Shown: positions 13,686 to 59,692, counted from the stretch's first letter. The stretch is DNA of 64,000 nt from an uncultured Lactobacillus sp. (GCF_947367085.1 NZ_CANBCP010000005.1:118-64117), one strand, 5' to 3'. Notes: generated by a model from the letters alone, not told the origin. A program made the numbers and translations.

Positions 13686-13793
13686 TAATTAAATTGATAA
13701 ATAATTTGATTTTAGTGACGTATTACTTTAGACTATTTATAGAAAGATCAATCCCTTCGCTTAATGGATACGTCCTATCGCGAAGGTTTTTTT
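13686..13793 (+). ncRNA. Candidate abi leader RNA / RNA antitoxin ending in a terminator that sequesters the RBS
   Basis: Non-coding stretch between promoter and ATG 13794; CCTTCGC/GCGAAGG stem with inner GGA-UACG-UCC hairpin, followed by T7. Confidence 0.5.
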
Positions 13794-23886: not shown

Positions 23887-25341
23887 TTATGAAGCTAATT
23901 TTTTAATCCATTTATGCCAACCATCAACTAGTTTGTTTTTATCATTTTCTTTCATCATTGGTTGATAGCTGATCTCTGAGTTCGTATCGGTGACTTTTTG
24001 GTTTGCATTCATTACACTGCCTAGTGCGCTTAGTTCTGAGATCTTTGATATATCTACCTTACTTTGAGTAATATTGCTTAAAAATTGCATCAAATATTTA
24101 TTATGAATCATTCCGCCATCTGTGTGAATTTCTTTTGCTAGAGAAGGGGTTATAGTTTGAAATTCATTTAAAATGTCATTTATTTGATATACCAGAGAAT
24201 TGAGTGTGGCACGAACTAATTCATTTTTGCCAGTTGTTGCATTCATCCCCACAAAGGCTGCTTGTAAATCAGGAAGCCAGTAAGGAGCACCGAGACCAGA
24301 AAAAGCAGGTATTAGATATGTATGGTCTTTGGGATTGGCAGTTAAAGCGAGATCTGCAGTTTCTTGGGGTGTCTGGATTAAGTGCAAATTATCTTTTAAC
24401 CACGTTACACAAGCTCCAGCGTAATTGATATTACCTTCAACTACATAAGAAGTTTTACCATTTAATGACCACGCAATTGAAGTGTTCAGTCGATTATTAA
24501 TATTATCAGGTAAGTTATTTCCAATATTTAGCATAACCGAAGAACCAGTTCCAAATGTTACCTTAAAGTCACCAGAATTAAAGCAGTGGTGAGCAAATAG
24601 AGCAGCTTGAGAATCACCTAAGACACTTAGAATAGGAATGGGTTGGCTCAGAAGACCAAATAAATCAGTCTCGCCAAATTGAGAATTGGAATCAACTATC
24701 TCAGGGAGAGTATTTAGGTCGACTCCAAAAATTTCAGCTAACTCTTCATCCCATTGACCAGTTCTAATGTCCATTAACTGAGTTCTACAAGCATTAGAAG
24801 GCTCAGTTTTGAAAGATTTACCATTTGTTAATTGATATATAAGCCAGCTATCCATAGTGCCTAAGCATAAGTCATTATTTTCGTAAGCTTGTTTTACACG
24901 AGGTTCGTTTAAAAGCATCCAGCCCCATTTTGCACCAGTAAAATATGGGGAAAGAGCTAGGCCAGTTTTTTCTTTAACCTTATCTTTTAATTCAGGATAA
25001 GAAATCTTTTTAAGCAGACTTTCAGCACGACTATCTTGCCAAACGACAGTATGACATAAAGGTGATCCGGTTTTACGTGACCAGGCTGCTGCTGACTCTC
25101 TTTGATTAGTTATAGCCAATTTTGTAATTTGGTCTTCTGAAACTTGACTTAAAGCTGAAGCAAAGAGACTTTTTAAATTATCTTTTATTTCATCAAGATC
25201 ATGACTGACCCATCCTTGACGGTTGATAATTTGTTTGTGAGGTAATGCAGTCTTCCAAAATATTTGATTATCTTGATTGACTAAGATTGCTTTGGTGCCC
25301 TGAGTACTTTGATCGATGGCCAGAGTATATTTTTCTGACAT
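23887..25341 (-). CDS. FGGY-family sugar kinase, glycerol kinase-like (candidate apulose kinase)
   Basis: LAIDQSTQGTKA, ITNQRES, GDSQAALF, VTFGTGS, PAFSGLGAPYW, DGG. Confidence 0.85.
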   Translation of the reverse strand: MSEKYTLAIDQSTQGTKAILVNQDNQIFWKTALPHKQIINRQGWVSHDLDEIKDNLKSLFASALSQVSEDQITKLAITNQRESAAAWSRKTGSPLCHTVVWQDSRAESLLKKISYPELKDKVKEKTGLALSPYFTGAKWGWMLLNEPRVKQAYENNDLCLGTMDSWLIYQLTNGKSFKTEPSNACRTQLMDIRTGQWDEELAEIFGVDLNTLPEIVDSNSQFGETDLFGLLSQPIPILSVLGDSQAALFAHHCFNSGDFKVTFGTGSSVMLNIGNNLPDNINNRLNTSIAWSLNGKTSYVVEGNINYAGACVTWLKDNLHLIQTPQETADLALTANPKDHTYLIPAFSGLGAPYWLPDLQAAFVGMNATTGKNELVRATLNSLVYQINDILNEFQTITPSLAKEIHTDGGMIHNKYLMQFLSNITQSKVDISKISELSALGSVMNANQKVTDTNSEISYQPMMKENDKNKLVDGWHKWIKKLAS

Positions 25342-25355
25342 GAAATCACCAACTT

Positions 25356-26297
25356 TTATTTATCAAGAATTTTCTTAATAGATTTTTCAATTCCTTCAGC
25401 ATCAAGACCGTAATAATGGAATACTTCATCTTGGGTGCCTTGAATTGCTGGTTTGTCTGGAAAGCCAAGGATATCTAATTTAGCGTGACCATATTTTGCG
25501 ACTTCACTTGCAACTGCTGCGCCAATACCATTTATGACATCGTGTTCTTCGACAGTGACAATATGATCGAATTTTTGAGCTAGTTGACCGATTAATTCAG
25601 TATCAAGTGGCTTAATAGAGCCGAGATCTACAACTTGAGCATTAATACCTTGCTTTTCAAGATTTTCAGCAGCTTTTAAGGCAAAATATAAAGTTTCACC
25701 AGTAGAGATTAGACAGATATCTTCGCCTTTTTTAATAATCTTGGCTTTGCCAGGAACAAAATCAAAATCTTCGTGATATACGTTGTCCAATTTACGCTTA
25801 CCAATACGAACGTAAGCTGGTTTATCTGAGGTTAATAAGTATTTGAAAAGAGCTTTAACTTGATACTTATCGCAAGGTTGATAAACTTCAAGATCAGGAA
25901 TAGCACGTGTAATAGCTACATCATTGAGTGAGTGGTGGGTGTTACCAAGCCAGGTGTAAGAATTACCACCTGAAATACCAATCAACTTAACATTATTTTT
26001 GTTAAATGCAACATCTACCTTAACTTGTTCAATTGAGCGCATTGCTAAAAATGATGCAGGAGAAAATACAAAGGGATGCTTTCCTTCATGAGCTAATCCG
26101 GCAGCTACAGTAACTGCGTTTTGCTCAGCAATCCCCATCTCAACAGTGCGATCAGGGTGAGCGTTGGTGAATGGCACTAATCCGGCTGAGCCACGAGAGT
26201 CACAAGTCACTACTAATAAATCAGGATCTTTTGCTGTTGCTTTATCTAAAGTATCTGCAATCACTGCATTTGCTGTTAACTTTTCATCATTAGTCAT
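25356..26297 (-). CDS. Transketolase C-terminal subunit (split TK)
   Basis: EMGIAEQNAV..AAGLA, RSIEQVKVD, VTVEEH..NGIG pyrimidine-binding and C-terminal domains. Confidence 0.92.
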   Translation of the reverse strand: MTNDEKLTANAVIADTLDKATAKDPDLLVVTCDSRGSAGLVPFTNAHPDRTVEMGIAEQNAVTVAAGLAHEGKHPFVFSPASFLAMRSIEQVKVDVAFNKNNVKLIGISGGNSYTWLGNTHHSLNDVAITRAIPDLEVYQPCDKYQVKALFKYLLTSDKPAYVRIGKRKLDNVYHEDFDFVPGKAKIIKKGEDICLISTGETLYFALKAAENLEKQGINAQVVDLGSIKPLDTELIGQLAQKFDHIVTVEEHDVINGIGAAVASEVAKYGHAKLDILGFPDKPAIQGTQDEVFHYYGLDAEGIEKSIKKILDK

Positions 26298-27123
26298 TGT
26301 TAAGTGCCTCCATTTGTGCGTCTAATTCTCGTAATCCTTCTTGGTATTGGACTTCAGTAGGAATCTTGTGATGCCAATCAGCTCTGTTTTCGGCAACTGT
26401 AATACCTTTTCCTTTAACAGTATTAGCAATAATCATTCTCGGTTTATTAGTATTATTTTCTTTAGTTAAGACATCAACTAATGCACCGATATCATTGCCG
26501 TCGACTTCTTGAACATCCCAACCAAAAGCACGATATTTATTACTAATTGGGTTAGAACGCATAACTGAATCGGTAGTACCAGTAATTTGTAAATCATTAT
26601 GGTCAATGATTGCAGTTAAATTATCTAAGCTATAGTTACCAGCAGCCATAGCAGCTTCCCAAACAGATCCTTCTGCTTGTTCACCATCACCCATTAATAC
26701 ATAGGTATGCTTGGGTGAGTGATTCATTTTTGCTGCTAAAGCGACACCTACGCCAAGGCCTAATCCATGTCCCAGTGATCCTGTATGAAATTCCATACCC
26801 TTTACGTCGGTTGTAGGGTGGCCGATATAAGGACTATTGAAAGTTGAATATCTCTTTTCCAGATCATCACGATCAATATATCCTTTATCGGCTAATATTT
26901 CGTACCAAATTTCAACAGCGTGTCCCTTGCTTTGAATATAAGTGTCGACATCTTTTTGACCAAAATTATCTTTATCCTGGTTCATTACTTGATAATAAAG
27001 TGCAACTAAAATATCTGTACAAGATAAATCAGAACCCGTGTGACCATTTTTGTGGTTATAGATTAATTGCCAAGTTCTTTCTCTAAGCTCGACAGCTTTC
27101 TTTTTTAAATCTAACGTATTCAT
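26290..27123 (-). CDS. Transketolase N-terminal subunit (split TK)
   Basis: GHTGSDLS, SKGH, GSLGHG, TPP motif GDGEQAEG...N. Confidence 0.92.
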   Translation of the reverse strand: MNTLDLKKKAVELRERTWQLIYNHKNGHTGSDLSCTDILVALYYQVMNQDKDNFGQKDVDTYIQSKGHAVEIWYEILADKGYIDRDDLEKRYSTFNSPYIGHPTTDVKGMEFHTGSLGHGLGLGVGVALAAKMNHSPKHTYVLMGDGEQAEGSVWEAAMAAGNYSLDNLTAIIDHNDLQITGTTDSVMRSNPISNKYRAFGWDVQEVDGNDIGALVDVLTKENNTNKPRMIIANTVKGKGITVAENRADWHHKIPTEVQYQEGLRELDAQMEALNND

Positions 27124-27203
27124 AATTTTTCACCTCAAATTTTTGTAACCGCTTTTACATTTCTTATGCTATCATCAGGATAGTAAATTAAACAATATTT
27201 CAT

Positions 27204-27226
27204 CTAAACTAAAATTTTAGTTTAGT
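27204..27226. promoter_or_regulatory. Perfect 22-bp palindrome CTAAACTAAAA/TTTTAGTTTAG between divergent tkt and lacI genes
   Basis: Read directly; half-site recurs at other island promoters. Confidence 0.6.
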
Positions 27227-27254
27227 ACTAGTTTATTAACAGATGGTGATTTCA

Positions 27255-28277
27255 ATGATAAAGATGGAAGACATAGCGCGTTTAGCTGGAGTATCAAGAT
27301 CAGCAGTTTCTTTGACAATTAACGATAAACCAGGTGTAGGACCCAAAACACGAGAAAAAATATTTAAAGTAATTGAAGAAAATGATTATCAGCCCTTGAG
27401 AAAAAGACATAAAGGAAAATCTCACTATTTGGCATCAGTAACGTTTTTGATTATTACCAATCATCAGGGGATGGTGAAAAGCAATTATCGTTCGTTGCCG
27501 TTTTTTGATAATTTGATTTCTGCTTTATCTAAAAATATCTCTGCTTATGGAGGTACTACACAAGTTCAAAATATTGAATCAAGCAGAATTAAAAAAGATA
27601 TACCTGCCCTTGTTAAAGAAGGGGTGTTAAAGAATACTGTTGTTTTAGCAACAGATCTTTCCAGACAGCAAGTTCAGTTCATAAAAGATGAATTGAAAAC
27701 TGTTGTTTTTGTGGACACATATTATGATGATGTATCGGCAGACTTTGTAACTATGGATAATTTCCAGGGTGCTTATAATGCTGCTGAATATATTTTGAAT
27801 AAAGGCTATAAAAATATCGGTTATGTTGCATCTGATCGCAATATAAGTAACTTTCAGAATCGAAGAAGGGGATTTTATCAAGCTATGAAATTACATAAAC
27901 GTGAAATCTTGCCTGAACATTTTTATAGCATCTCGCCTTTAATGAAGGGTGCTGATGAAAATGAAATTATTGATATGCTTCAAAAAAGTAAGTCTTTACC
28001 AGATGCGTTGTTTTGTGAAGATGATTATATTGCTGTTCGCTTGATTAAGGAACTGTCAAATTTAAATATTAAAGTTCCTGATAGAGTTGCTATTATGGGA
28101 TTTGATGATATTTATGTAGGCCAGATGATATCTCCGGAATTAACGACAGTTCATGTTCCAATTCATCAAATTGTTAATCAAGTTCTTTTTCAATTGCAAG
28201 AACAACGTGGAATGGAGCATTGGCAGCCACAAAAATGTTTAGTAGCGACTAGGATCGTTGAAAGACAATCCTTATAA
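27255..28277 (+). CDS. LacI-family transcriptional regulator (atypical hinge); alternative start 27243
   Basis: MEDIARLAGVSRSAVS HTH; GFDD..PELTTV C-terminus. Confidence 0.88.
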   Translation: MIKMEDIARLAGVSRSAVSLTINDKPGVGPKTREKIFKVIEENDYQPLRKRHKGKSHYLASVTFLIITNHQGMVKSNYRSLPFFDNLISALSKNISAYGGTTQVQNIESSRIKKDIPALVKEGVLKNTVVLATDLSRQQVQFIKDELKTVVFVDTYYDDVSADFVTMDNFQGAYNAAEYILNKGYKNIGYVASDRNISNFQNRRRGFYQAMKLHKREILPEHFYSISPLMKGADENEIIDMLQKSKSLPDALFCEDDYIAVRLIKELSNLNIKVPDRVAIMGFDDIYVGQMISPELTTVHVPIHQIVNQVLFQLQEQRGMEHWQPQKCLVATRIVERQSL

Positions 28278-28283
28278 AAAAAC

Positions 28284-28364
28284 TTAGTTGAGCTTAATTT
28301 AGTAAATTTAATGACTAATTTAATGACTTTTATGTTATTTTGATTCATGTGGAAAGCGATTACA
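28284..28364 (+). promoter_or_regulatory. Island repeat motif (28284-28303) and cre-like site (28351-28364) upstream of isomerase operon
   Basis: Reverse complement ACTAAATTAA-GCTCAACTAA; GGAAAGCGATTACA. Confidence 0.5.
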
Positions 28365-28386
28365 TATTTTCGTTTAAAGGAGATAC

Positions 28387-29844
28387 ATGATGACAAATAA
28401 AAATAGCTTGAAACAAATAAAGCTTGGTTTTGCACCAACTAGAAGAAATATCTTTTCAGCGACTGCCGCAATTGAATTTGCAGATAAAACACGTAAAAAG
28501 TTAGATGAATTAGGTGTTAACTACGTTGATATTAAAGATGTAAATGATGATGGACTCCTGTATGATGATTCAGGATTAGAAAAGATTACTGAAAAATTTA
28601 AAGCTGAAAAGATTGACGGTTTATTTATTGCAAATGAAAACTTTGGGACAGAATACGAAGTTGCCCGTTTAGCAGCTAAATTAAATGTTCCTGTTTTACT
28701 TTGGGGACCAAGAGATGAAGCGCCAGCTCCAGACGGATCAAGACGTCGCGATACGCAATGTGGCTTGTTTGCTATTGGTAAGGTTCTACGTCACTTTAAT
28801 GTACCTTTTACTTATATAAAAAATAGCGATATTGATGATCCATCATTTAGTCGTGGAGTAATTGACTTTATTAAAGTATGTAATGTAGTCAAAACCTTCA
28901 AAAATACTAGAATATTGCAAATTGGACCACGTCCATTCGACTTTTGGTCAGTTATCGTTAATGAAGGTGAGCTATTAGAAAAATTTGGCATTCAACTTTC
29001 TCCAATTCCATTAGGAGAAGTGACATCCTATATGAATGAGTTGATCAAGAAAAATGATCCTAGAATTGAAGATACAAAAGAGACCTTCAGAAAATGGGCT
29101 GATATAAAAATTAAAGACGAAGACTTTACTAAAGTTGCTGCATTAAAATTAGCAATGCAAGATAAAATGAAAGAGTACGGTTGTAATTGTGCAACTATTC
29201 AATGCTGGACAGAATTACAACGTGAGATTGGAATTTTGCCATATGCTTCTGAAGCTTTACTTCAAACGGAAGGAATGCCAGTAACTTGTGAAACGGACAT
29301 TAATGGTGCTATTTCTGAAGTGTTAGCAGAAGCTGCAACTCTAGGTGATGAACGTGCTTTATTTGCAGATGTAAATTGTCGTCACCCAGAAAATGAAAAT
29401 GGCGAATTGTTGCAACACTTAGGAACATTTGCATTTCAAACTGCTAAGAATCGTCCAGTCTTACCACCATCTCATTTTGTATTTGATTACCCAGGTTCAG
29501 CAGCTTTCCAAGTTAAAGATGGTACATATACTTTAGTTAGATTTGATGGCGATCACGGTAAGTACTCAATGTTAATCGGAAATGCTAAAACTTGTGAAGG
29601 ACCTTATGAACAAGGTACTTATGCTTGGTTCCAATTCAAAGATTTAAACAGATTTGAAGCAAAATATGTTTATGGACCATATATCCACCATATGGCTGGA
29701 GTTCGCGCAGATGTTGTTCCAATTTTGGCAGAAGCTTGCAAGTATATTAATGTTAATGCAGATTACTACGATCCTATTAAGGAAAAGGTCGCAGCATATT
29801 GGTATGGTGATTTGGATACTATTTTGGATTCTGATCAAAGATAG
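28387..29844 (+). CDS. L-fucose/L-arabinose isomerase-family protein (candidate D-apiose isomerase)
   Basis: NFGTE, DTQCG, IQCW, PVTCETDING, RHP, HLG, YIHH motifs of FucI-like isomerases. Confidence 0.78.
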   Translation: MMTNKNSLKQIKLGFAPTRRNIFSATAAIEFADKTRKKLDELGVNYVDIKDVNDDGLLYDDSGLEKITEKFKAEKIDGLFIANENFGTEYEVARLAAKLNVPVLLWGPRDEAPAPDGSRRRDTQCGLFAIGKVLRHFNVPFTYIKNSDIDDPSFSRGVIDFIKVCNVVKTFKNTRILQIGPRPFDFWSVIVNEGELLEKFGIQLSPIPLGEVTSYMNELIKKNDPRIEDTKETFRKWADIKIKDEDFTKVAALKLAMQDKMKEYGCNCATIQCWTELQREIGILPYASEALLQTEGMPVTCETDINGAISEVLAEAATLGDERALFADVNCRHPENENGELLQHLGTFAFQTAKNRPVLPPSHFVFDYPGSAAFQVKDGTYTLVRFDGDHGKYSMLIGNAKTCEGPYEQGTYAWFQFKDLNRFEAKYVYGPYIHHMAGVRADVVPILAEACKYINVNADYYDPIKEKVAAYWYGDLDTILDSDQR

Positions 29845-29852
29845 GAGAAAAT

Positions 29853-31139
29853 ATGTTAAAAGTTCAGGGAAAATATTTATATAAAGATGACAAGAAATTC
29901 TTTTATCTGGCAGATACTTGCTGGGGAGCATTTACCAGCATAACAATGCCTGACTGGAAATATTATCTTGATACTAGAAAAGCCCAAGGCTTTAATGCCA
30001 TTCAAATAAACATTTTGCGTCAATGGGATTCGAGCCTACCAATTGATCAAAGAGAGCCATTTGCCATTAAAGAAAATGAGGATGGTAGTTATGTTTATGA
30101 CTTTTCTAAGATAAATAAAGCATATTTTGATAATGCTGCTAATATGCTAGAAGAAATGGCTAAGCGAAACATGGTTCCGGTCTTAGTACTCTTGTGGGGC
30201 AATTTTGTGCCAGATACTTGGATGAGCAAATTTGTCTCAAATAATACAATACCGTTTGATCAGATTAAGCCTTATGTGGAATATGCAGTAAAGAAATTCA
30301 AAAAATATAACCCAATTTGGTTTGTAAGTGGGGATGTTGGTTTTACCGATAATGGCAAGCAAAAGAAAGATTCCGCAATCAAGTATTACCGAGAGGTATT
30401 AAATGTTGCCCAAAGTATTGATCCAGATGGTATTTATACTTTCCATATTAATGGCGAATCAACCGAAGTTCCTGAGGAATTCAAAAAGCAAACGCAAATG
30501 TTTATCTATCAATCTGGTCATGGTTATGATGGACAAGATACTGCGTATACAATACCTGAAAAAATGCGGAAAGACGGTTATCAAGGCCCAATGATGGATG
30601 CGGAAATTTGCTATGAAGGGTTAACTAAGATGAAAGCTCCGTCTCCAGCACGTTATAGTGCATTTGATGTGCGTAAAGCAGCTTGGCATGCTGTATTGTC
30701 AGGAGCTGATGCGGGAATAGGTTATGGAACTTTTGGTATTTGGCCATGGAAAGATACTGCAAGACCTGAAGCAAAACTGGATGCAAATTTTAATGTTCAA
30801 CTTGTTCCATACGACTGGCGTCAGTGCCTTGGATTCAGAGGCTGTTTGGATATGGGATATTTGAAGAATATCCTAGAGAAATATGCTCCAAATGGATTAA
30901 CTCCAATTTATACTCCAGTACAAGATGATCCAACAATCAGAGCCGCAGAAAATGATGAGTATCTATTAGTATATTTACCAACTGCAGGAGTTCTGGATTT
31001 TGATGAATTTAATATTCAGCTGAAATCAGCACAAGTAATTGATTTACAAAAGAGAATGCCACTTACTGGTAAAGTCATAGATAATACGCTTCAAATGTTG
31101 CCGGTTGTTGAAGATGAGTTGGTAATCGTTAAGAAATGA
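29853..31139 (+). CDS. DUF4038 / GH140 apiosidase-like glycoside hydrolase, cytoplasmic
   Basis: FFYLADTCW, YLDTRKAQGFNAIQ, WFVSGD, YQSGH, DAEICYE, VRKAAW..VLSGA..YG..GIW; no signal peptide. Confidence 0.72.
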   Translation: MLKVQGKYLYKDDKKFFYLADTCWGAFTSITMPDWKYYLDTRKAQGFNAIQINILRQWDSSLPIDQREPFAIKENEDGSYVYDFSKINKAYFDNAANMLEEMAKRNMVPVLVLLWGNFVPDTWMSKFVSNNTIPFDQIKPYVEYAVKKFKKYNPIWFVSGDVGFTDNGKQKKDSAIKYYREVLNVAQSIDPDGIYTFHINGESTEVPEEFKKQTQMFIYQSGHGYDGQDTAYTIPEKMRKDGYQGPMMDAEICYEGLTKMKAPSPARYSAFDVRKAAWHAVLSGADAGIGYGTFGIWPWKDTARPEAKLDANFNVQLVPYDWRQCLGFRGCLDMGYLKNILEKYAPNGLTPIYTPVQDDPTIRAAENDEYLLVYLPTAGVLDFDEFNIQLKSAQVIDLQKRMPLTGKVIDNTLQMLPVVEDELVIVKK

Positions 31140-31170: not shown

Positions 31171-32079
31171 ATGAAATATTTTAAGAAAGATATAGGAGAA
31201 AATGGCGCTAAAGCCACATTTTATCTCCAAGAGCCTAATAAGGAAATTGATATCAATAGAAAGTCACCAGTGATGATTGTTGTTCCTGGTGGAGCCTACA
31301 TGTGGACTTCTTGGCGTGAAGAAGAACCCATTGCGCTAGAATTCTTAAGTAAAGGTTTCTCATGTGTAGTAGCAGAATATGCGACAGAAGGATTAGGGTT
31401 TTATGATGGTAAACATGATTACTCTAAAGATCCAGTTTCTGCATTTCCTAAACCATTAACTGATTTAGCAAAAACCATTGCATATGTAAGGGAAAATGCT
31501 GATCAGTGGTCATTAGATTCCAATAGTATTAATGTTATTGGCTTTTCAGCAGGTGGTAATTTGACTGCCCAACTTGGTTGTTATTGGCAAACAGATTGGC
31601 TAAAAGATCTTGTTGGCAAGTCTTCTGAATTATTTAAGCCTAATTCCATTTGTTTAGCTTATGGTGCTCCACATATGTCAAAAGCGCCTGAAAAAGATCG
31701 TTATAAGCAAACAAAGAAAATGGGTGGCGATGGAATGATTAATTATGCCACTTTAGGTCATGATCAATCTGATGAAAGAATAAAGCTTGTTAATATGGTT
31801 GATGCAGTGACTGACAATGTGCCACCGACTTTCATTTGGCATACTATGGAAGATCCTTATGTACCTGTTGCAAGTGCATTGCATTTTACTGAGCAACTTG
31901 AAGACAAAATGGTTCCATTTGAGCTGCACATCTTTCAAAAAGGAAAGCATGGCTTGGCGTTAGCTGATTTAAGAACCGATAGCAAAGCGGATCGTAGTCA
32001 AAGTAATGTCCAAGCTGCTAGTTGGAAGAGACTGTATTTGGGTTGGCTTAAAGAAAATGGATTAATTAATTTATTTTAG
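31171..32079 (+). CDS. Alpha/beta hydrolase (acetyl/acyl esterase-like)
   Basis: PGGAY oxyanion loop, GFSAGG, PPTFIWHT.ED, ELHIF..GKHGL. Confidence 0.85.
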   Translation: MKYFKKDIGENGAKATFYLQEPNKEIDINRKSPVMIVVPGGAYMWTSWREEEPIALEFLSKGFSCVVAEYATEGLGFYDGKHDYSKDPVSAFPKPLTDLAKTIAYVRENADQWSLDSNSINVIGFSAGGNLTAQLGCYWQTDWLKDLVGKSSELFKPNSICLAYGAPHMSKAPEKDRYKQTKKMGGDGMINYATLGHDQSDERIKLVNMVDAVTDNVPPTFIWHTMEDPYVPVASALHFTEQLEDKMVPFELHIFQKGKHGLALADLRTDSKADRSQSNVQAASWKRLYLGWLKENGLINLF

Positions 32080-32114: not shown

Positions 32115-32170
32115 ACTAAACTAAGCTAAATTAAAATGAAGTTATTAAAATAGTATTGTAATCGGTTACA
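32115..32170 (+). promoter_or_regulatory. Island repeat motif (32115-32134) and cre (32157-32170)
   Basis: ACTAAACTAA-GCTAAATTAA; TGTAATCGGTTACA matches cre consensus. Confidence 0.65.
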
Positions 32171-32203: not shown

Positions 32204-32267
32204 GGATTGTTACATTAAGTTGGCAAGACCAATATAGAGAAAACTCTTATTAGTCTTGCCATTTTTT
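32204..32267 (+). promoter_or_regulatory. RAT plus overlapping terminator upstream of second antiterminator/PTS operon
   Basis: GGATTGTTACATTAAGTTGGCAAGACC overlaps stem tggcaagac..gtcttgcca plus T6. Confidence 0.85.
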
Positions 32268-32282
32268 ATTGGAGGCAAAACC

Positions 32283-33119
32283 ATGATCATCGAGCGAATT
32301 TTGAACAATAATGCTATTTTGGCTAAAGATGATAACGGACGAAATTTAGTTGCGTTAGGATCTGGAATTGCTTTTGGTAGGAAAAAAGGTCAAACAGTAG
32401 CAAGCTCAAAAATAGAAAAAATTTTCTATCCTAAAGATCAGGCGACGACAAATACGATAAGTGAAACCTTAGCACAGATTCGTCCTGAATACATAGAGTT
32501 ATCCGATCAGATTATTTCAGAAGCAATTGCAAGTTCTGGTAAAAAGTTAAGTGACGATATTTATATTTCTTTGCCAGATCATCTTCAATTTGCAGTCGAG
32601 CGCGTTAGACAAGGTATCACTATTCAAAATAGGTTGACCATTGAAACTATGCAAGTTTATCCGGATGAGTTTCAATTAGGCAAAAAAGTAATCGATTATT
32701 TAGGTGAGAAAAGTGGATTGAAGTTTAATGATGATGAAGCTGCAAATGTTGCGATGCACATCATAACGGCAGAGGAAGGAGATTCGTTAGAGAACACTCA
32801 GGGGAGTATTGAATTAATAAATAACTTTTTGAATATTATTGAAGAGATGCTGGGTAAAAAGATTGATGTGGACTCTGTTTCATATTATCGATTAATTACT
32901 CATTTGAAATTTTTTGTTCAAAGAATAAAGAAGAAAACTAAAAGTTCTCATCCAGCAGATCAAGATCTCTATAATTTGATCATTCATAAATATCATAAAG
33001 AATACCTAATTGCTCAACGTCTGGCTGGGATAGTTTTAAGAGATTGTGATTATGAAGTATCACAAGATGAAATTATGTATTTAACAATACATATTCATAG
33101 AATTAATACCGCTAGCTGA
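32283..33119 (+). CDS. BglG/LicT-family antiterminator (start corrected to ATG 32283)
   Basis: IERILNNNA..GSGIAFG CAT domain; LPDHL, VAMHI, LITHLKF, LTIHI PRD histidines; GGAGG RBS. Confidence 0.9.
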   Translation: MIIERILNNNAILAKDDNGRNLVALGSGIAFGRKKGQTVASSKIEKIFYPKDQATTNTISETLAQIRPEYIELSDQIISEAIASSGKKLSDDIYISLPDHLQFAVERVRQGITIQNRLTIETMQVYPDEFQLGKKVIDYLGEKSGLKFNDDEAANVAMHIITAEEGDSLENTQGSIELINNFLNIIEEMLGKKIDVDSVSYYRLITHLKFFVQRIKKKTKSSHPADQDLYNLIIHKYHKEYLIAQRLAGIVLRDCDYEVSQDEIMYLTIHIHRINTAS

Positions 33120-33129
33120 GGATAGAAGC

Positions 33130-35331
33130 ATGAATGAATATAAAGCAGTTGCAGAAAAAATAGTTAGCTCGCTTGGCGGTAGTTCAAATATTGTTGAAGC
33201 ATATCACTGTGTGGCAAGAATTAGAATTAGAGTCAAGAATAGAGTAGAAATAAATTTTACGGAATTAAATTCGGTTGATGTAATTTTAGAAACAACTTTT
33301 GTTGATGGAGAGTTGCAAATATTGATCGGCAATCAAGTAGATAATTATTATTCTGCTTTGATGAAAATAATAAATGCTAAGAAAGATTTTTCTAAAATTA
33401 AAAAAGGAGATATTGAGATGGGAAAGTCTGGAAGTAAAAACAAACAGCTAGCTGAGCAGATTGTGAAACTAGTTGGTGGTAAAGAAAATGTTATTAGTTT
33501 AGTTCATTGTGTAACGCGTTTACGTTTTAAGTTGAAAGATGAAAGTAAAGCAGATGATCAAGCTTTAAAAAACTTAAAAGGTGTTATGGGCGTAGCTCAT
33601 GCTGGTGGTCAATATCAAGTAATTATTGGCGCAAATGTTGCTGATGTTTATGACGAAGTAATGCCACTTTTAGGATTATCTTCAAGTCAGACAGTTGGTC
33701 CTCAAGATGAAGATAATGATAAAAATATTTTTAGTAAGTTTGTTGCATTAATTTCATCATTATTCATGCCCCTATTAGGTGTCATGACAGGGGCAGGTAT
33801 GTTAAAAGGTTTGCTTGTTTTATTCAATGTTTTAGGTTGGGTTAAACAAGGAACTGGTACTTATATGATTTGGAATGCTGCAGGGGATGCACTATTTTAC
33901 TTCTTACCAGTACTGTTAGGTTACACAGCAGGTAAAGCATTTCATGTAAATGAATTTGTAGGTGCAATTACTGGTGGAGCATTAGTTTATCCAACTATGG
34001 TAGCTGCAGCAACTGCTCACAAGGCTATTAACTTTATGGGAATTCCTGTTACTTTGATGAACTATAGTCAAACAATGCTTCCAATTGTAATTGCAATTTG
34101 GGCTATGTCATGGCTAGAAAAAGGTACAAAAAAAGTTATTCCTTCAGCGGTTAAGAATTTATTTGTTCCGTTACTTGATCTGATGATTATTGTTCCTTTG
34201 ACTTATATTGTTGTTGGACCAATCACACAAACAATTTCGCAATGGTTATCAGTAGGAAGTTTATGGCTTTATGGTTTAGTTCCAGTTGTTGCTGGATTCA
34301 TCTTAGGTGGTATTTGGCAAGGTGCAATTATCTTAGGTTTACACTGGGCATTTATTCCAGTATTAATGAATAACTTAACAACCAATGGCTTTGACCCAAT
34401 TAATGGTATTTTGTACTGTACTTTATTTGGACAAGTTGGTGCTGCTTTAGCTATGGGCTTAAAAGCAAAAGATAAGAACTTTAAAGAAATTGCCCTTCCA
34501 GCAGCTTTATCAGGATTCTTCGGTATCACTGAGCCTATTATTTATGGTGTTACATTACCACATAAAAAATCATTCTTATTTGCTTCTATCGGGTCTGCCT
34601 TTGGTGGTGCAGTAGCAGCTGCTTGTCACGCTGGTATGTACACTATGCCTGGTGGTGGTGTCTTTGGTATTCCAGCATTTATCAATCCTAAGGGTATCAA
34701 CTTACAATTCATCGGTTTAGTTGCTTCAATTGTTATCGCCTTAGTAGTAAGTTTTGTATTGACAATGATTTGGGGAGATAAAGTTGTAGCTGCAACTGAT
34801 AATAACGATAAAGTTAAAAAAGTTGAATTCAAAGATGAAGCAATCTATGCTCCAATTGAAGGTATTGCAGTTCAATTAAAGAATGTTAAGGATGCTGTAT
34901 TTTCAACTGAAACTATTGGTAAAGGTATTGCAGTTCAACCAGATAAGGGAGAAGTTAGAGCTCCATTTGATGGTAAGGTTGTTTCAGTATTTCCAACCAA
35001 GCATGCAATTGGTTTGAAATCTGATAATGGTGTGGAATTATTAATTCATATTGGAATTGATACAGTAAATCTTAAAGGTAAATATTTTGATTCAAAAGTT
35101 AAGGCAGGAGATATTGTTAAGAAAGATGATTTACTAGAAACTTTTGATTTAGATCAAATTAAAAAAGCTGGCTATGATACAGTAGTTCCAGTCGTTGTCA
35201 CAAATGCCAATAACTTCGATGAAATTATCTTAGAAAAGAAAAATGGTGACGCAGTTAAGTTTGATGATCAATTATTGATGGCTACTGTAGATCAAGAAGT
35301 TGAAATTCCAGCACAAGCTGTTAAAGCTTAG
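33130..35331 (+). CDS. PTS beta-glucoside transporter with two tandem EIIB domains (IIB-IIB-IIC-IIA)
   Basis: HCVARIRI and HCVTRLRF IIB motifs, GITEPIIYG, LIHIGIDTV; internal AAAGGAG RBS plus in-frame ATG at 33418. Confidence 0.85.
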   Translation: MNEYKAVAEKIVSSLGGSSNIVEAYHCVARIRIRVKNRVEINFTELNSVDVILETTFVDGELQILIGNQVDNYYSALMKIINAKKDFSKIKKGDIEMGKSGSKNKQLAEQIVKLVGGKENVISLVHCVTRLRFKLKDESKADDQALKNLKGVMGVAHAGGQYQVIIGANVADVYDEVMPLLGLSSSQTVGPQDEDNDKNIFSKFVALISSLFMPLLGVMTGAGMLKGLLVLFNVLGWVKQGTGTYMIWNAAGDALFYFLPVLLGYTAGKAFHVNEFVGAITGGALVYPTMVAAATAHKAINFMGIPVTLMNYSQTMLPIVIAIWAMSWLEKGTKKVIPSAVKNLFVPLLDLMIIVPLTYIVVGPITQTISQWLSVGSLWLYGLVPVVAGFILGGIWQGAIILGLHWAFIPVLMNNLTTNGFDPINGILYCTLFGQVGAALAMGLKAKDKNFKEIALPAALSGFFGITEPIIYGVTLPHKKSFLFASIGSAFGGAVAAACHAGMYTMPGGGVFGIPAFINPKGINLQFIGLVASIVIALVVSFVLTMIWGDKVVAATDNNDKVKKVEFKDEAIYAPIEGIAVQLKNVKDAVFSTETIGKGIAVQPDKGEVRAPFDGKVVSVFPTKHAIGLKSDNGVELLIHIGIDTVNLKGKYFDSKVKAGDIVKKDDLLETFDLDQIKKAGYDTVVPVVVTNANNFDEIILEKKNGDAVKFDDQLLMATVDQEVEIPAQAVKA

Positions 35332-35332
35332 T

Positions 35333-35367
35333 AAAAGAGGTTCTAGTATTGATGCTAGAGCCTTTTT
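35333..35367 (+). terminator. Terminator-like hairpin after PTS
   Basis: aggttctag/ctagagcct plus T-run. Confidence 0.6.
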
Positions 35368-35385
35368 GCTATTTGAGGTATTAAG

Positions 35386-36165
35386 ATGAGAAAACTTTTA
35401 ATTAGGGCAGATGATTTAGGATATAGTCGTAGTGTTAATTACGGAATATTTGATGCTGTTCATTTTGGAATTATAAATAATGTCGGCGTAATGACCAATA
35501 TGCCTACTACTCCATATGCATTAGAATTGTTAAAAGATGAGAATATAGATTTAGGGATGCATACTAATATTTCAAATGGAAAGTCTGTATTGAATGCAAG
35601 CCAAGTACCAAGCTTAGTTGATGAAGATGGTAATTTTAAGAGTTCACATGTTTATAGAGAAAATTTTAGGCTGGGGAGACCAGATTTTGTTGAATTAGAC
35701 GAGGTCGTTGCTGAAATCGAAGCACAGTATGGGCAATTTTTTAAATTAATAGGTAAAAAGCCAGATTATTTTGAGGGACATGCTGTGATGAGCCCTAATT
35801 TTAGGAAGGGGTTAAAAATCGTAGCCGACAAGTATGATCTGCCATTTCTTGATTTTCCAGTTTCGGCTTCGATATCATTTAAGAAAAATACGCATTTTAA
35901 AGTTTATATGGGTGGATATAAAGAAGGTAAAATCGATCCAAGTTACAAACCAATCGATTTATTAAAGAATGCAGTTGAACAAGAAGAGAAGGATTTAATT
36001 CCAATGTTTATCTCACACGCAGGATATTTAGACAATTATTTATTACAACATTCTAGTTTGACTGTCCCGAGGGTTAAGGAAGCTGCATGTTGGATTGATA
36101 AAAGCACTATCGATTATATTGCAGAGAATCAAATTAAACTTGTTCGATATAGTGAATGTGACTAG
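35386..36165 (+). CDS. ChbG/YdjC-family carbohydrate deacetylase
   Basis: IRADDLG, DLGMHTN, EIEAQ, DYFEGH, SHAGY. Confidence 0.85.
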   Translation: MRKLLIRADDLGYSRSVNYGIFDAVHFGIINNVGVMTNMPTTPYALELLKDENIDLGMHTNISNGKSVLNASQVPSLVDEDGNFKSSHVYRENFRLGRPDFVELDEVVAEIEAQYGQFFKLIGKKPDYFEGHAVMSPNFRKGLKIVADKYDLPFLDFPVSASISFKKNTHFKVYMGGYKEGKIDPSYKPIDLLKNAVEQEEKDLIPMFISHAGYLDNYLLQHSSLTVPRVKEAACWIDKSTIDYIAENQIKLVRYSECD

Positions 36166-36173
36166 GTGAAAAT

Positions 36174-38936
36174 ATGGAGATTTCTAATATTTTAATAAAC
36201 CAACTTCATGAGCCAATCGGTTATGATTTTTCAAATTTAAGAATTACATTTGAAGTGAAGGATGCTGATAAGAATAATGATACTTATAAAGGGGTAAAAA
36301 TCTGGACAGATGATAAATCACATCCAATTTTAAATCTTTCAAAAATTATTTATGACACCAATTCTTTTGACATAGCCCTATCGCTTGCTCCACGAACTAG
36401 ATACTATGTTGAGATTTCTGTTCAAAATGGAGATATTTTTGCTTCAAGAGAAACTTTCTTTGAAACAGGAAAAATGAAAGAACCCTTTGAAGGAAAATGG
36501 ATAGCTAATGCTGATAAAGACTTGCCCAATCCTTTATTTAAAAAGAATTTTCACACAGAAAGAAATAACATTAAGCAGGCGAGATTATATGCAACGGGGC
36601 TTGGAGTATATAATGCTTATTTAGATGGTAAGAAAATTGGTAATGAATTTCTTACACCGGGCTTTACAGCATATGATCAGTGGGTCCAGATTCAAACCTA
36701 CGATATAACGGATTTACTAACGGCAAATTCATTGCATGACTTGGTATTTTCATGTGCTGATGGATGGTATAAAGGAAATATGGGATTTGACGGTGGAAAA
36801 AATAATATTTATGGCGATCAACACATGATCTTAGCGGATCTTTACATTACTTATGATGATGGAAAAAGCCAAATCATTAAAACTGATAAAAGTTGGTTTA
36901 CAACAAATGGACAAGTAACTAAATCAGGCATTTATTATGGTGAAGATGTAGACGCAACCATCAAAATTGAAAATTATAGACCAGTTGTTGAAGTTCAATC
37001 ACCTACAAGCGAGCTTAGTGATCGATTAAGTTTACCAATTGTTGAACACGAAAAATTAGATGTTAAAAAAGTCATCAATACTCCCAAAGGAGAACTTATT
37101 TTAGACTTTGGTCAAAATCAAGCTGGTTGGCCAATGTTTTATAATCATCTTCCTAAAGGTAAAAAGATCATCCTTCAAATGGGCGAGATTTTGCAAAATG
37201 GAAACTTTTATAATGAAAATTTACGTAAGGCTAGAGCTAGTTTTACCTATATTTCTGATGGTAAGAAAAAGTGGGTACATCCCAATTTTACATATTTCGG
37301 ATATCGATATGTAAAAGTCACAGGGGTAGATAAGCTTAATCCAGAGGATTTTAAAGCTCAGGTTTTATATTCCGATCTAAAACAAACTGGTCATCTCCAG
37401 ACAAATAATGAAAAAGTAAATCGTTTATTTCAAAATGTTATTTGGGGACAAAGAAGTAATTTCATGGACGTTCCTACTGATTGTCCTCAAAGAGATGAAC
37501 GTTTAGGATGGTGCGGTGATAGCGAGATATTTTCTGAAACTGCTAATTTCAATATGGATACTTTCGAATTCTTTAGAAAGTATTTAAGGGACATAAGAGT
37601 TGAACAAACTCTAAATGGTGGAAAATCACCGATGTTTGCACCTAGTCTAAAAACACCATTCTCCGGGATGGCGATTTGGGGCGATGCTATTTGCATTCTT
37701 AATTGGAATTTATATAAATTCTATGGTGACAAGGCGTTGCTTCAAGAAAATTATTATGCGATGAAGAGATGGGTAGATTGGATTACAGCTAATAGTAAAA
37801 CGGCAGATTTGTGGACTGGACAGATGCAGTTAGGAGACTGGCTCGCATTAGATAATGATGAGCCTAGTTCGCCTAAAGGAAAAACAGATGATGTTTATAT
37901 TGCATCACTTTATTATGCAAATTCAGCTCATATTGTTGCTCAAGCTGCTGGAGTTTTAAATAATTTGTCTGATATGAAGAAGTATACAGACTTGAATCAA
38001 AGAATATTGCAGGCTATCAGAAAAGAATATCTGAGTCCAAATGGGCGATTAACAATTGATACACAAAGTGCTTACGTATTAGCTTTAAAATTTGATTTAC
38101 CGTTGCCAAAGCAAAAGAAGCATGTAATTGACGATTTAGTAACTAGAATTCATAAAGATAATGATCATTTAACTACAGGATTTGTAGGTACACCGTATCT
38201 ATGTGAAGAATTATCTGAAAATGGATATCATAATTTAGCTGTTAAGATTTTTCTACAAGAAGATTATCCTAGTTGGCTTTATAGTGTAAACTTAGGTGCA
38301 ACAACTATATGGGAAAGATGGAATTCAGTCTTAAAAGATGGAAAGATGAATCCGGCAGGAATGAATTCATTGAATCATTATAGTCTGGGTGCAGTTATGG
38401 CTTGGTGTTATAAAGATATCTTAGGTATTTACGACCATAATAGTGATTTTTCCCAAGTAGTGTTTAAACCACACTTTGATATGAATCTAAGCCAGGTGAA
38501 AGGATCATACGATAGTAATTATGGAAAACTAAAAATTGATTATGAGTTAAAGTCGTCAACCTCAGTAAAAATAAATCTTGAGATACCTTTCGGTATGAAG
38601 CTAATACTTAAGCTTTATGATATAGCATCTGATACTTTCTCAGTAAATGGGAAAATAATATCAATTCCAAATGTTTTACAAAGCGGAACATATGAGATTG
38701 AATATAGAACTACTAAGTCACTAGTCAAAGGACTAAATTTAGACATTAAAATCTCCACGTTGCTAGAAAAGAAAGAATTAGTAGCAAAGATTGATAAAAT
38801 TGATAAGAATATTTTGTTAAAGATGAAGCGTCCGGGGAATACTCGAGGGATGTTTATCAGTAAGAGTTTTAAATCACTCTTGGAGTTTGAATCTGTAGAT
38901 CAACAAAAGATAGATAAAATTAAAAAAACTATTTGA
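36174..38936 (+). CDS. Alpha-L-rhamnosidase (GH78), cytoplasmic
   Basis: ARLYATGLG, LDFGQN, FTYFGYRY, PTDCPQRDERLGWCGD, TGFVGT, ATTIWERW, SLNHY. Confidence 0.92.
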   Translation: MEISNILINQLHEPIGYDFSNLRITFEVKDADKNNDTYKGVKIWTDDKSHPILNLSKIIYDTNSFDIALSLAPRTRYYVEISVQNGDIFASRETFFETGKMKEPFEGKWIANADKDLPNPLFKKNFHTERNNIKQARLYATGLGVYNAYLDGKKIGNEFLTPGFTAYDQWVQIQTYDITDLLTANSLHDLVFSCADGWYKGNMGFDGGKNNIYGDQHMILADLYITYDDGKSQIIKTDKSWFTTNGQVTKSGIYYGEDVDATIKIENYRPVVEVQSPTSELSDRLSLPIVEHEKLDVKKVINTPKGELILDFGQNQAGWPMFYNHLPKGKKIILQMGEILQNGNFYNENLRKARASFTYISDGKKKWVHPNFTYFGYRYVKVTGVDKLNPEDFKAQVLYSDLKQTGHLQTNNEKVNRLFQNVIWGQRSNFMDVPTDCPQRDERLGWCGDSEIFSETANFNMDTFEFFRKYLRDIRVEQTLNGGKSPMFAPSLKTPFSGMAIWGDAICILNWNLYKFYGDKALLQENYYAMKRWVDWITANSKTADLWTGQMQLGDWLALDNDEPSSPKGKTDDVYIASLYYANSAHIVAQAAGVLNNLSDMKKYTDLNQRILQAIRKEYLSPNGRLTIDTQSAYVLALKFDLPLPKQKKHVIDDLVTRIHKDNDHLTTGFVGTPYLCEELSENGYHNLAVKIFLQEDYPSWLYSVNLGATTIWERWNSVLKDGKMNPAGMNSLNHYSLGAVMAWCYKDILGIYDHNSDFSQVVFKPHFDMNLSQVKGSYDSNYGKLKIDYELKSSTSVKINLEIPFGMKLILKLYDIASDTFSVNGKIISIPNVLQSGTYEIEYRTTKSLVKGLNLDIKISTLLEKKELVAKIDKIDKNILLKMKRPGNTRGMFISKSFKSLLEFESVDQQKIDKIKKTI

Positions 38937-39970: not shown

Positions 39971-40064
39971 TGTAATGGGTTACATTATTATTATACCGCA
40001 ATTTTACTGAAAGCTTAGTTTAGTCATAGTTGAGCAATTTCACGTTGAAATGTAACCGGTTACA
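39971..40064. promoter_or_regulatory. Divergent lacI/MFS control region: TGTAATGGGTTACA (39971-39984), island motif (40012-40035), TGTAACCGGTTACA (40051-40064)
   Basis: Two cre/LacI-type palindromes; reverse complement GCTCAACTAT-G-ACTAAACTAAGCT. Confidence 0.62.
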
Positions 40065-40118
40065 CTATAGTATAAAAGTGTAAGAAATGAGATGACTCGT
40101 ATGTCAGGAGGAAACATT

Positions 40119-41333
40119 ATGGATATTGAGGAACTCAAAAAAACTAATAAACATAATTGGAAATTAAAAGTTGGAATTTTGGGTATTTCACTTTTTCTAC
40201 AAGTTGCTGGTTCAAATTTGGCCGCAATCCCGATGATTGCTAAAACTTTTCCAAATGAATCGCTAACATCAGTACAAGCATTGTTTACGATTCCTTCATT
40301 TACAATTATGCTATTTATTTTGTTTAGCAATGCAGTAATTAAATGGGTAGGTAAACGTAATACTGTAATTATTGGAATGATAGCAACACTAATAGGTGGT
40401 TTGATTCCCTTCTTTATTAATAACTTTCCATTAATCGTATTTAGCAGATTGCTTGTGGGAGCAGGAATTGGTCTTTTTACTTCATTAGCTGTCTCATTGA
40501 TTGGAGATTGTTTTAGTGGTGAAGAGCAAAAAACATTAATTGGTATTCAAGGTGCGATGGGAACTTTAGGTAACAGCGCATGTACATTTATTTCAGGTTT
40601 ACTTTTAGGGATTAGTTGGCAAAGTACTTTTCTGTATATGCTCTTAATCATTCCATTTTTAATTCTTTTTATGATGGGATATACGAAAAAGATGCAAGAT
40701 GAAACTACAGTGAAGAAGACTACTTCAGTGAAAAAGAGTAATACTATGCATGCTAAAATCCCAGTAATCATTTATATTGCATTTTTTATGCTTTTCCTAT
40801 ATTTCTCAGCATTTATGGTAGAAGCCACAGCTTCAGCTTTAGTTATTCAACAAAATAATTTAGCAAATCAAGGGTTACTTTCGACAGAAATTGCTATTGG
40901 TGGACTTATTGGAGCTGTAATTTCTATGGGCTACAGTAAGATACTTAAAGTGCTCCATCATTATACTCCAGTAGTTACTACATTATGCGGAGCGGTTGGT
41001 TTCATAATTTGCTCACAAGCTAGGAATATGTTGGTCTTTTTTATTGGATTATTGTTGATGTTTGTGAGTTCTTTGATTATTCCATACGTTTATGACACGA
41101 TTTTGAGCGATGTGGACCCATCAATTAGTAACTTAATTATCTCTATTGCTCAAGTATGTAATAATTTAGGCGCGTTTGCTTCACCATATGTAATAGTATT
41201 CTTGAGCAAAGTTCTTCACTTAACTACTCCAGTTGATCAAATGAGAATTAGCGCAGGGATTCTAGTTGTAATTACATTTGTATTCTTTGTGATGGCATTA
41301 GTTCATAAAAAGTCCGTTCAAGTAGCTGAATAG
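40119..41333 (+). CDS. MFS transporter (sugar/glycoside permease candidate)
   Basis: About 12 TM segments, KWVGKRNT loop motif, SRLLVGAGIG; AGGAGG RBS before ATG 40119. Confidence 0.82.
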   Translation: MDIEELKKTNKHNWKLKVGILGISLFLQVAGSNLAAIPMIAKTFPNESLTSVQALFTIPSFTIMLFILFSNAVIKWVGKRNTVIIGMIATLIGGLIPFFINNFPLIVFSRLLVGAGIGLFTSLAVSLIGDCFSGEEQKTLIGIQGAMGTLGNSACTFISGLLLGISWQSTFLYMLLIIPFLILFMMGYTKKMQDETTVKKTTSVKKSNTMHAKIPVIIYIAFFMLFLYFSAFMVEATASALVIQQNNLANQGLLSTEIAIGGLIGAVISMGYSKILKVLHHYTPVVTTLCGAVGFIICSQARNMLVFFIGLLLMFVSSLIIPYVYDTILSDVDPSISNLIISIAQVCNNLGAFASPYVIVFLSKVLHLTTPVDQMRISAGILVVITFVFFVMALVHKKSVQVAE

Positions 41334-42939: not shown

Positions 42940-44499
<1,560 letters not shown>

Positions 44500-59409: not shown

Positions 59410-59692
59410 TATTTTCCCCTCATCCATAGACTAACATGTTTATAAATAAAAATAAGCATTTGTGCATGAAATAATATTTATTAATCCGTATTCATCAGTA
59501 TACGCTCATTTAAACGCTTAGTCATTATTTATAAAAGCTGATATCATCGCATTGCAGGCCATAAGTATTTCAAATAAAATGAATAATTCGAAATTGGGAC
59601 GCACCAATATATAAAATGGTTGAATTTTTAATGAAAGTGCTTTATTATAGAATTGAAAAAAGAAATTGAAACTTTGTTTTAAGGAGAAAATT

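Follow-up and report, generated by a model that had tools for sequence, protein, structure and literature searches.

Does a Lactobacillus locus that joins an isomerase, a kinase and a split transketolase to a glycoside hydrolase-like gene serve the catabolism of D-apiose? The question is raised by positions 23887-31139 of a stretch of 64,000 nucleotides from an uncultured Lactobacillus sp. (NZ_CANBCP010000005.1:118-64117; G+C about 35%), and the whole of this stretch, at its full length, is referred to here as the window. A preliminary description made from the sequence had proposed that the locus releases and ferments apiose. The six genes that it named were found at their coordinates, and in the families given for them, by analysis of open reading frames with Pfam and NCBIfam:

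23887-25341, minus strand, FGGY kinase, GlpK-like, predicted apulose kinase (AplK-like); Pfam FGGY_N 186 bits, FGGY_C 101 bits
25356-26297, minus strand, transketolase C-terminal subunit (AptB-like); Pfam Transket_pyr and Transketolase_C
26290-27123, minus strand, transketolase N-terminal subunit (AptA-like); Pfam Transketolase_N
27243-28277, plus strand, LacI-family regulator; Pfam LacI and Peripla_BP_3
28387-29844, plus strand, FucI/AraA-like isomerase, predicted D-apiose isomerase of a Firmicute subfamily
29853-31139, plus strand, PF13204 (GH140-like) type-1 hydrolase, predicted cytoplasmic beta-D-apiosidase; Pfam PF13204 ('Apiosidase-like') 274.6 bits

The intergenic gaps across these genes are 14, -8, 119, 109 and 8 nt, the two transketolase halves overlapping by 8 nt, and this spacing is in keeping with two operons that diverge at the LacI gene. 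Judged from sequence comparison, the locus is probably the catabolic core of an apioside/apiose utilization island, in the form of a diverged variant of the known transketolase pathway, and the apiose core taken alone is assigned with good confidence. In the proposal of release and fermentation of apiose, the apiose core is supported in silico, whereas extracellular release from pectin is not. All substrates, the assignment of the transporters and the regulation are predicted.

The non-oxidative (transketolase) pathway of D-apiose, MetaCyc PWY-8089, reportedly consists of ApsI, AplK and AptA/AptB, as described by Carter et al. in 2018, whose AplK is UniProt entry Q6D5T8. In E. coli ST131/ST14, the presence of a cluster containing aplK, aptA and aptB matches growth on D-apiose, and two short-chain dehydrogenase/reductase (SDR) genes have been proposed to replace apsI in this cluster (2026 J Bacteriol, PMC13001218). 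AplK, AptA and AptB of the E. coli SE15 cluster were used as the reference enzymes for comparison, and a scan of genome contigs with E. coli AplK as the query gave 80 loci. A FucI-like gene is found in 35 of them, two SDR genes in another 35 and both in one, the remaining nine being truncated contigs or distant FGGY matches without a transketolase. The FucI-like gene is wedged between aptB and aplK in the 34 of its loci that also show a transketolase. In loci of this aptA-aptB-x-aplK type it is the sole gene that encodes neither a transporter nor a regulator, and it is taken as the apsI candidate because they contain no other candidate for an isomerase. Its putative identity with ApsI rests on the complementarity of gene neighbourhoods with the SDR pair. 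A FucI-like ApsI, as implied in the preliminary description, agrees with the occurrence of the SDR genes or of a FucI-like gene in 71/71 AplK loci having either. Names in databases never read 'apiose isomerase'. The Pectobacterium cluster is not among the 80 loci, and a sample of 301 genomes of the order gave five matches. In a single locus of Vibrio salinus (L065, 997-20463), two complete sets of transketolase genes are present; the SDR pair accompanies one and a FucI-like isomerase the other, and both solutions of the first step coexist there.

Are the Lactobacillus genes equivalent to these proteobacterial ones? The strongest argument for equal function, as far as sequence comparison can argue it, is provided by natural mosaics. 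In Pasteurellaceae LIM206 (L082, JAWHQP010000017.1, 1314-11407), a SorC regulator, a substrate-binding protein (SBP), DUF2291, an ATP-binding cassette (ABC) transporter, AptA/AptB, a kinase and an isomerase are encoded together, with an SBP 47% and AptA/AptB 75% identical to those of E. coli and a kinase 45% identical to AplK. The isomerase of this AptAB/AplK/SBP cluster, which sits in the usual place of ApsI, is 68% identical to that of the window and 83% identical to that of Enterococcus cecorum, and is nested among Lactobacillales sequences. This suggests that the proteobacterial operon acquired a single pathway gene from a Firmicute. In two small genomes of 2.4-2.5 Mb (G894, L202, C24, 4338-13632; G862, L203, C24, 4199-13365), an E. 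coli-like SBP (69-73%), ABC transporter, AplK (58-60%) and SDR (63%) are combined with a transketolase of the Firmicute type, which is 54-55% identical to the C-terminal subunit of Trichococcus and 35% identical to AptB. By these mosaics, the isomerase and transketolase of the window type are interchangeable with the proteobacterial parts of apiose clusters.

The transketolase itself points in the same direction. Its N-terminal half is 43% identical to AptA of E. coli SE15 and its C-terminal half 36% identical to AptB. In a tree of the concatenated halves, AptAB and all transketolases linked to the isomerase and kinase form one clade, with an ultrafast bootstrap (UFBoot) of 98 and a Shimodaira-Hasegawa-like approximate likelihood ratio (SH-aLRT) of 95; the clade reappears in a larger quick tree of 69 rows (SH-aLRT 94). 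Besides AptAB it comprises the window, 20 Lactobacillaceae, Trichococcus, G499 (Bacilli) and two genomes of Pasteurellaceae size, and it was set against 19-28 other split transketolases of Bacilli, all of which fall outside. Seven neighbourhoods of split transketolases of Bacilli were read; six contain no isomerase or kinase, and the exception, G499, belongs inside the AptAB clade. Two substitutions in the active site (numbered as in E. coli TktA), D469 to L and L382 to S, are present in 15/15 AptAB and 23/23 cluster-type transketolases, whereas the other split transketolases have D at 469 in 25/28 and L at 382 in 23/28. R358, H461, F434 and R520 are replaced both in AptAB and in the cluster type, by different residues in each, and the C-terminal half of the window transketolase carries D469L, L382S, H461S, R358N, F434P and R520K. 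By the E. coli and yeast structures, R358, H461 and D469 are the canonical residues that bind the phosphate and determine the stereochemistry of the substrate. The preliminary description had proposed to ask whether the transketolase clusters with AptAB or with pentose enzymes, and both the grouping and the shared AptAB-specific changes decide for AptAB.

These residues bear on a different explanation of the locus, in which a housekeeping set would have come together by chance, made up of an isomerase for L-fucose or L-arabinose, a general pentose-phosphate transketolase and a second kinase for glycerol. It would suit this explanation that no second transketolase was found in the genome, the only other PF00456 match being marginal (33.5 bits, profile positions 146-262, in a frame of 593 aa). 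However, the enzyme shares D469L and L382S with AptAB and has lost R358, H461, F434 and R520, so that it is not a general pentose-phosphate transketolase; that candidate was rejected on the loss of R358, H461 and D469.

The kinase is a more delicate case. It is 32% identical to AplK of E. coli SE15 and 35% identical to the GlpK encoded in its own genome, and kinases of the cluster type form a separate clade with 32-36% identity to AplK. Since AplK and GlpK of E. coli already share 40% identity with each other, identity alone decides nothing. The window kinase keeps R83, E84, W103 and D245 of GlpK. Four changes, Q246S, F270S, R17K and L272M, are common to 18/18 AplK, 21/21 kinases of the cluster type and the kinase of LIM206, but occur in 0/26 GlpK. 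Such changes in the pocket fit a larger substrate that would still offer a glycerol-like end, as apulose does. A glycerol kinase of the housekeeping kind would be in keeping with 472 bits on TIGR01311 (GlpK) and 347 bits against GlpK of S. aureus. This candidate was rejected, however, because the TIGR01311 score lies below the cut-off of 590 bits, the pocket is changed, with Q246 and F270 lost, and a true GlpK is encoded elsewhere in the genome. The kinase tree contains three clades, AplK, cluster-type and GlpK; with a root on a very long outgroup, a tree constrained to join AplK and the cluster type gains 18.5 log-likelihood units over the free quick tree and is not rejected (P = 0.82 in the approximately unbiased test, p-AU). 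Of the affiliation with AplK that had been expected, the specific changes in the active site are shared, while a close orthologue of AplK is not what the window encodes: its kinase belongs to a diverged subfamily. In one locus of the same genus (L106, G178:C1, 5025-6472), the cluster kinase is split into two frames, corresponding to residues 1-231 and 235-483 and separated by 8 nt, owing either to a frameshift that makes it a pseudogene or to an error of the assembly.

The isomerase matches Fucose_iso_C of Pfam with 25.8 bits, under the cut-off of 29.3. Its homologues at 65-87% identity across Lactobacillales, some of which carry PF02952, are named 'L-fucose/L-arabinose isomerase family', and its cluster at 93% identity includes AAS09085.1 of L. 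johnsonii, to which the Lactobacillus of the window, of a gut type, is closely related. The isomerase of L. johnsonii NCC 533 shares a cluster at 90% identity with that of the window. When compared with the FucI-like gene of enterobacterial aptA-aptB-x-aplK operons, it can be aligned over the full length with 25-28% identity (E = 1e-41), and 46 invariant columns are common to diverse members of the window type and the ApsI type. The earlier classification as FucI-like is borne out, but a close orthologue of the enterobacterial type it is not, the window protein representing a subfamily that has diverged to an identity of about 25%. The name given by NCBI, which goes no further than the L-fucose/L-arabinose isomerase family, would again be compatible with a housekeeping set, but partners from a fucose or arabinose pathway were not found with it. 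The isomerase is present in 20 of 400 genomes of other Lactobacillaceae species, including 3 of 21 of the same genus, and in 20/20 of these genomes the genes for LacI, isomerase, both transketolase subunits and kinase are adjacent. With a gene set so restricted and always linked, a chance assembly of housekeeping genes is very improbable.

The sole NCBIfam match of the isomerase, SftI (NF048012, 97 bits), raises a further question, namely whether the locus belongs to a transketolase-type sulfoquinovose (sulfo-TK) pathway. That route uses split transketolases, too. The score is, however, far under the cut-off of 700 bits, the route needs no kinase, the transketolase groups with AptAB, and neither a sulfoquinovosidase nor a sulfo-product reductase nor an exporter is encoded in the island. 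The sulfoquinovose reading is scarcely credible and was rejected on the SftI score and the absence of its partner genes from the island.

Several observations weigh against apiose as the substrate. The isomerase shares only about 25% identity with the enterobacterial type. The window kinase keeps Y135 of GlpK, where AplK has L, and the free quick kinase tree, again rooted on the very long outgroup, placed the cluster type beside GlpK. The type-1 protein reaches only 45-51 bits against PF13204/GH140 proteins of known activity, and to our knowledge an activity is known for only a few of these. The window contains no SBP, DUF2291 or ABC transporter of the apiose type; a phosphotransferase system (PTS) and a transporter of the major facilitator superfamily (MFS) are found instead, and the assignment of transporters and glycosides is made by guilt by association only. 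Would another rare sugar of similar shape, a branched or short-chain aldose, account better for the locus? The isomerase, kinase and transketolase would then act on that sugar, and the PF13204 enzymes would free it. The distance of the isomerase from the enterobacterial type, the separate clade of the kinase with its Y135, the different replacements at R358, H461, F434 and R520 in AptAB and the cluster type, and the remoteness of both PF13204 subfamilies of the window from BT1012, the GH140 beta-D-apiosidase of Bacteroides thetaiotaomicron, would all agree with this. On the other hand, isomerases and transketolases of the window type have been swapped into clusters that retain AplK together with an SBP of 47-73% identity to the apiose SBP of E. 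coli, D469L/L382S and Q246S/F270S are exactly as in AptAB and AplK, and in Kluyvera PF13204 genes adjoin canonical apt operons. Another rare sugar is unlikely on balance, and D-apiose remains the preferred substrate.

How would apiose be supplied to these enzymes? The preliminary description had ended the locus at 31139, which is too small an extent; the unit extends as far as position 44.5 kb or so and includes an esterase, a LicT/PTS block, GH78 and a second LacI-MFS-PF13204-GH1 unit. The phosphoketolase that had been placed at 59693 is real. The additional features are as follows:

31171-32079, plus strand, alpha/beta esterase, cytoplasmic (BD-FAE; similar to lp_1002 arylesterase and PaeX); Pfam and NCBIfam
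32256-36165, plus strand, LicT antiterminator, beta-glucoside-type PTS IIABC and YdjC-like protein; NCBIfam LicT 289 bits, PTS-II-ABC-beta 808 bits
33130-35331, the beta-glucoside-type PTS within the LicT-PTS-YdjC block
36174-38936, plus strand, GH78 alpha-L-rhamnosidase, cytoplasmic; Pfam Bac_rhamnosid6H 402 bits
38987-39946, minus strand, second LacI gene (LacI#2; second unit); Pfam
40092-41333, plus strand, MFS transporter (second unit); Pfam
41361-42893, plus strand, type-2 hydrolase DUF5060-PF13204-DUF5605 (second unit); Pfam
42994-44499, plus strand, GH1 (second unit); Pfam
59666-62098, plus strand, xylulose-5-phosphate/fructose-6-phosphate phosphoketolase; Pfam XFP_N 566 bits, XFP and XFP_C

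The type-1 protein matches PF13204 from position 3 to 316 of the 320 positions of the profile. HMMER alignments to 3kzs, 4qfu and 8t9w were used for a comparison of motifs, in which FFxLxDTxW, IWxxxGD, TFH, QSGH, DxExxYE and DVRK turned out to be common to the type-1 protein, BT1012 (3kzs/5msy) and the apiosidase 8t9w. The type-2 protein scores 337 bits against PDB 4n0r, a 'putative glycoside hydrolase', so that a structure of this subfamily has been solved, though no activity is assigned to it. Examination for an N-terminal hydrophobic signal revealed no signal peptide on the two PF13204 proteins, GH78 or the esterase, and neither pectin lyases nor other enzymes for rhamnogalacturonan-II (RG-II) are encoded in the window. 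The supposition that apiose is cut from pectin outside the cell is not borne out by these hydrolases, which lack signal peptides and are linked to a PTS and an MFS transporter. Because of both features, release is probably intracellular, from imported glycosides.

This combination of genes recurs. A PF13204 gene of type 1 or type 2 lies within 10 kb of the core in 15/21 Lactobacillaceae loci, the window carrying both types, and PF13204 genes also accompany the core in Trichococcus and G499, as well as in Kluyvera/Silvania, beside aptAB-apsI-aplK. Downstream of the type-1 gene, a PTS IIABC of the beta-glucoside type or an EIIC is usually encoded, often with an esterase. A homologous IIABC (46-74%) comes after it, directly or past LicT, in L106, L107, L116, L121, L123 and L124, and EIIC takes the place of IIABC in L113 and Trichococcus. 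Esterase homologues (46-84%) are found in the corresponding unit of L106, L108, L121, L124 and Trichococcus, and GH78 is also present after the unit in L106. Type-2 genes (61-83%) directly flank the core in L107, L108, L109, L111, L112, L119 and L120, and in 5/7 of these loci (not in L109 and L120) a homologue of the window MFS transporter lies beside them. In Kluyvera/Silvania, a GPH-type symporter gene and a PF13204 gene are situated just upstream of aptA-aptB-apsI-aplK; the Kluyvera protein of the type-1-like kind is 35% identical to type 1 of the window, and Kluyvera L033/L079 have a type-2 homologue (40%) upstream of the apt operon. An rbs-like ABC system is found in two Lactobacillaceae loci (L110 and L118), with an SBP of only 28-29% identity. 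In some Lactobacillaceae loci without PF13204, such as L117 (G343:C1, 4887-6197), a galactitol-type PTS EIIC (EIIC-GAT) is encoded beside the kinase and may serve to import the free sugar.

The following route can be proposed. Glycosides with a terminal beta-D-apiofuranosyl residue would enter the cell via the PTS (33130-35331) and/or the MFS transporter (40092-41333), and the cytoplasmic PF13204 hydrolases (29853-31139 and 41361-42893), aided by the esterase, would free D-apiose, leaving a (phospho)glucoside to be handled by GH1 enzymes. The FucI-like isomerase would convert D-apiose into apulose, of which the glycerol-like end would be phosphorylated by the GlpK-like kinase to give apulose-4-phosphate. 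The split transketolase would then transfer C1-C2 to glyceraldehyde-3-phosphate to yield xylulose-5-phosphate and dihydroxyacetone phosphate (DHAP), and phosphoketolase would cleave xylulose-5-phosphate into acetyl phosphate and glyceraldehyde-3-phosphate, by which the acceptor would be regenerated. LacI would repress both divergent operons until an inducer appears.

In comparison with the ApsI/AplK/AptAB pathway, the three enzyme families gathered in one regulated unit are the same, and so is the predicted chemistry from apiose via apulose and apulose-4-phosphate to DHAP and xylulose-5-phosphate. The differences are that the Lactobacillus regulator is of the LacI rather than the SorC type, that the core is joined to cytoplasmic PF13204 hydrolases, an esterase, a PTS and an MFS transporter, and that in a host without another transketolase xylulose-5-phosphate would go through phosphoketolase. 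With BT1012 and 8t9w, the type-1 protein shares a full-length PF13204 catalytic domain in which the motifs are kept; unlike BT1012, it has neither a signal peptide nor DUF5060, which would place it in the cytoplasm. In the periplasm, BT1012 attacks the Api-beta-1,2-GalA linkage of RG-II (bioRxiv 10.64898/2026.03.13.711244). For the type-1 protein of the window, a small imported glycoside is the more likely substrate.

Which glycosides might these be? The presence of GH78 and two GH1 genes in the neighbourhood fits an island for plant diglycosides. As a tentative and rather doubtful extension, diglycosides of the 2-O-apiosyl (apiin) type and the 2-O-rhamnosyl (neohesperidoside) type might be imported by the PTS and phosphorylated at Glc-6; the GH140-like and GH78 enzymes might trim them, and a GH1 phospho-beta-glucosidase might split what is left, the apiose being fermented via apulose-4-phosphate and phosphoketolase. 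L. acidophilus is reported, by Theilmann et al. in 2017, to take up plant beta-glucosides via a PTS and a phospho-beta-glucosidase, the substrates being monoglucosides and the aglycone being discarded. That system reportedly handles dietary plant glycosides with an antiterminator of the LicT/BglG kind, a PTS IIABC for beta-glucosides and GH1, all three of which are also encoded in the window, where GH78 lies near the PTS. The window PTS differs in its linkage to enzymes by which a second sugar, apiose, would be cut off and fermented.

Is the locus regulated as a unit? Both in Trichococcus and in 20/20 Lactobacillaceae loci besides that of the window, a LacI homologue (34-57%) adjoins the isomerase. 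In the divergent promoter region, an imperfect palindrome, TGTAACCGCTTTTACA, can be read at 27144-27159 and is a candidate operator of the LacI/CcpA type. A related sequence, TGGAAAGCGATTACA, with a spacing different from that of this palindrome, precedes the isomerase gene. Perfect cre-like palindromes, TGTAATCGGTTACA and TGTAACCGGTTACA, precede the LicT-PTS operon (32157-32170) and the MFS-type-2 unit (40051-40064), respectively. A pattern of the 14-bp cre type has two sites in the 64 kb, which is not above chance (14/100 shuffles), and a scan for promoters and terminators gave a signal no higher than in shuffles.

The preliminary description knew of no account of apiose catabolism in lactobacilli, and a literature search likewise found none, nor any GH140-type apiosidases in lactobacilli. 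What would be new is a cytoplasmic glycoside front end on a diverged variant of a known pathway. Lactobacilli of the L. johnsonii group are generally considered homofermentative, with little use of pentoses, and a C5 sugar would be added to their repertoire. Apiose is common in the diet, where it occurs in rhamnogalacturonan-II, apiogalacturonan, apiin of parsley and celery, liquorice, and aroma precursors of grape and tea. Bacteroides thetaiotaomicron frees apiose into the medium while degrading RG-II (bioRxiv 10.64898/2026.03.13.711244). A dedicated route in lactobacilli of the L. johnsonii group, if it exists, would account for a niche substrate of these bacteria or for a link by cross-feeding. 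It would also provide testable substrates for a strongly conserved, unnamed isomerase subfamily and for two PF13204 subfamilies, and it is relevant to fermented foods, where flavonoid aglycones and aroma compounds are set free. If the diglycoside route holds, it would be the first cytoplasmic, small-glycoside role for PF13204 subfamilies, and flavonoid apiosides would be a growth substrate for gut bacteria of the L. johnsonii group.

Upstream of the sugar island, and unrelated to the apiose locus, an abortive infection-like gene of the Abi_2 family is located at 13764-14834 (Pfam, 133 bits).

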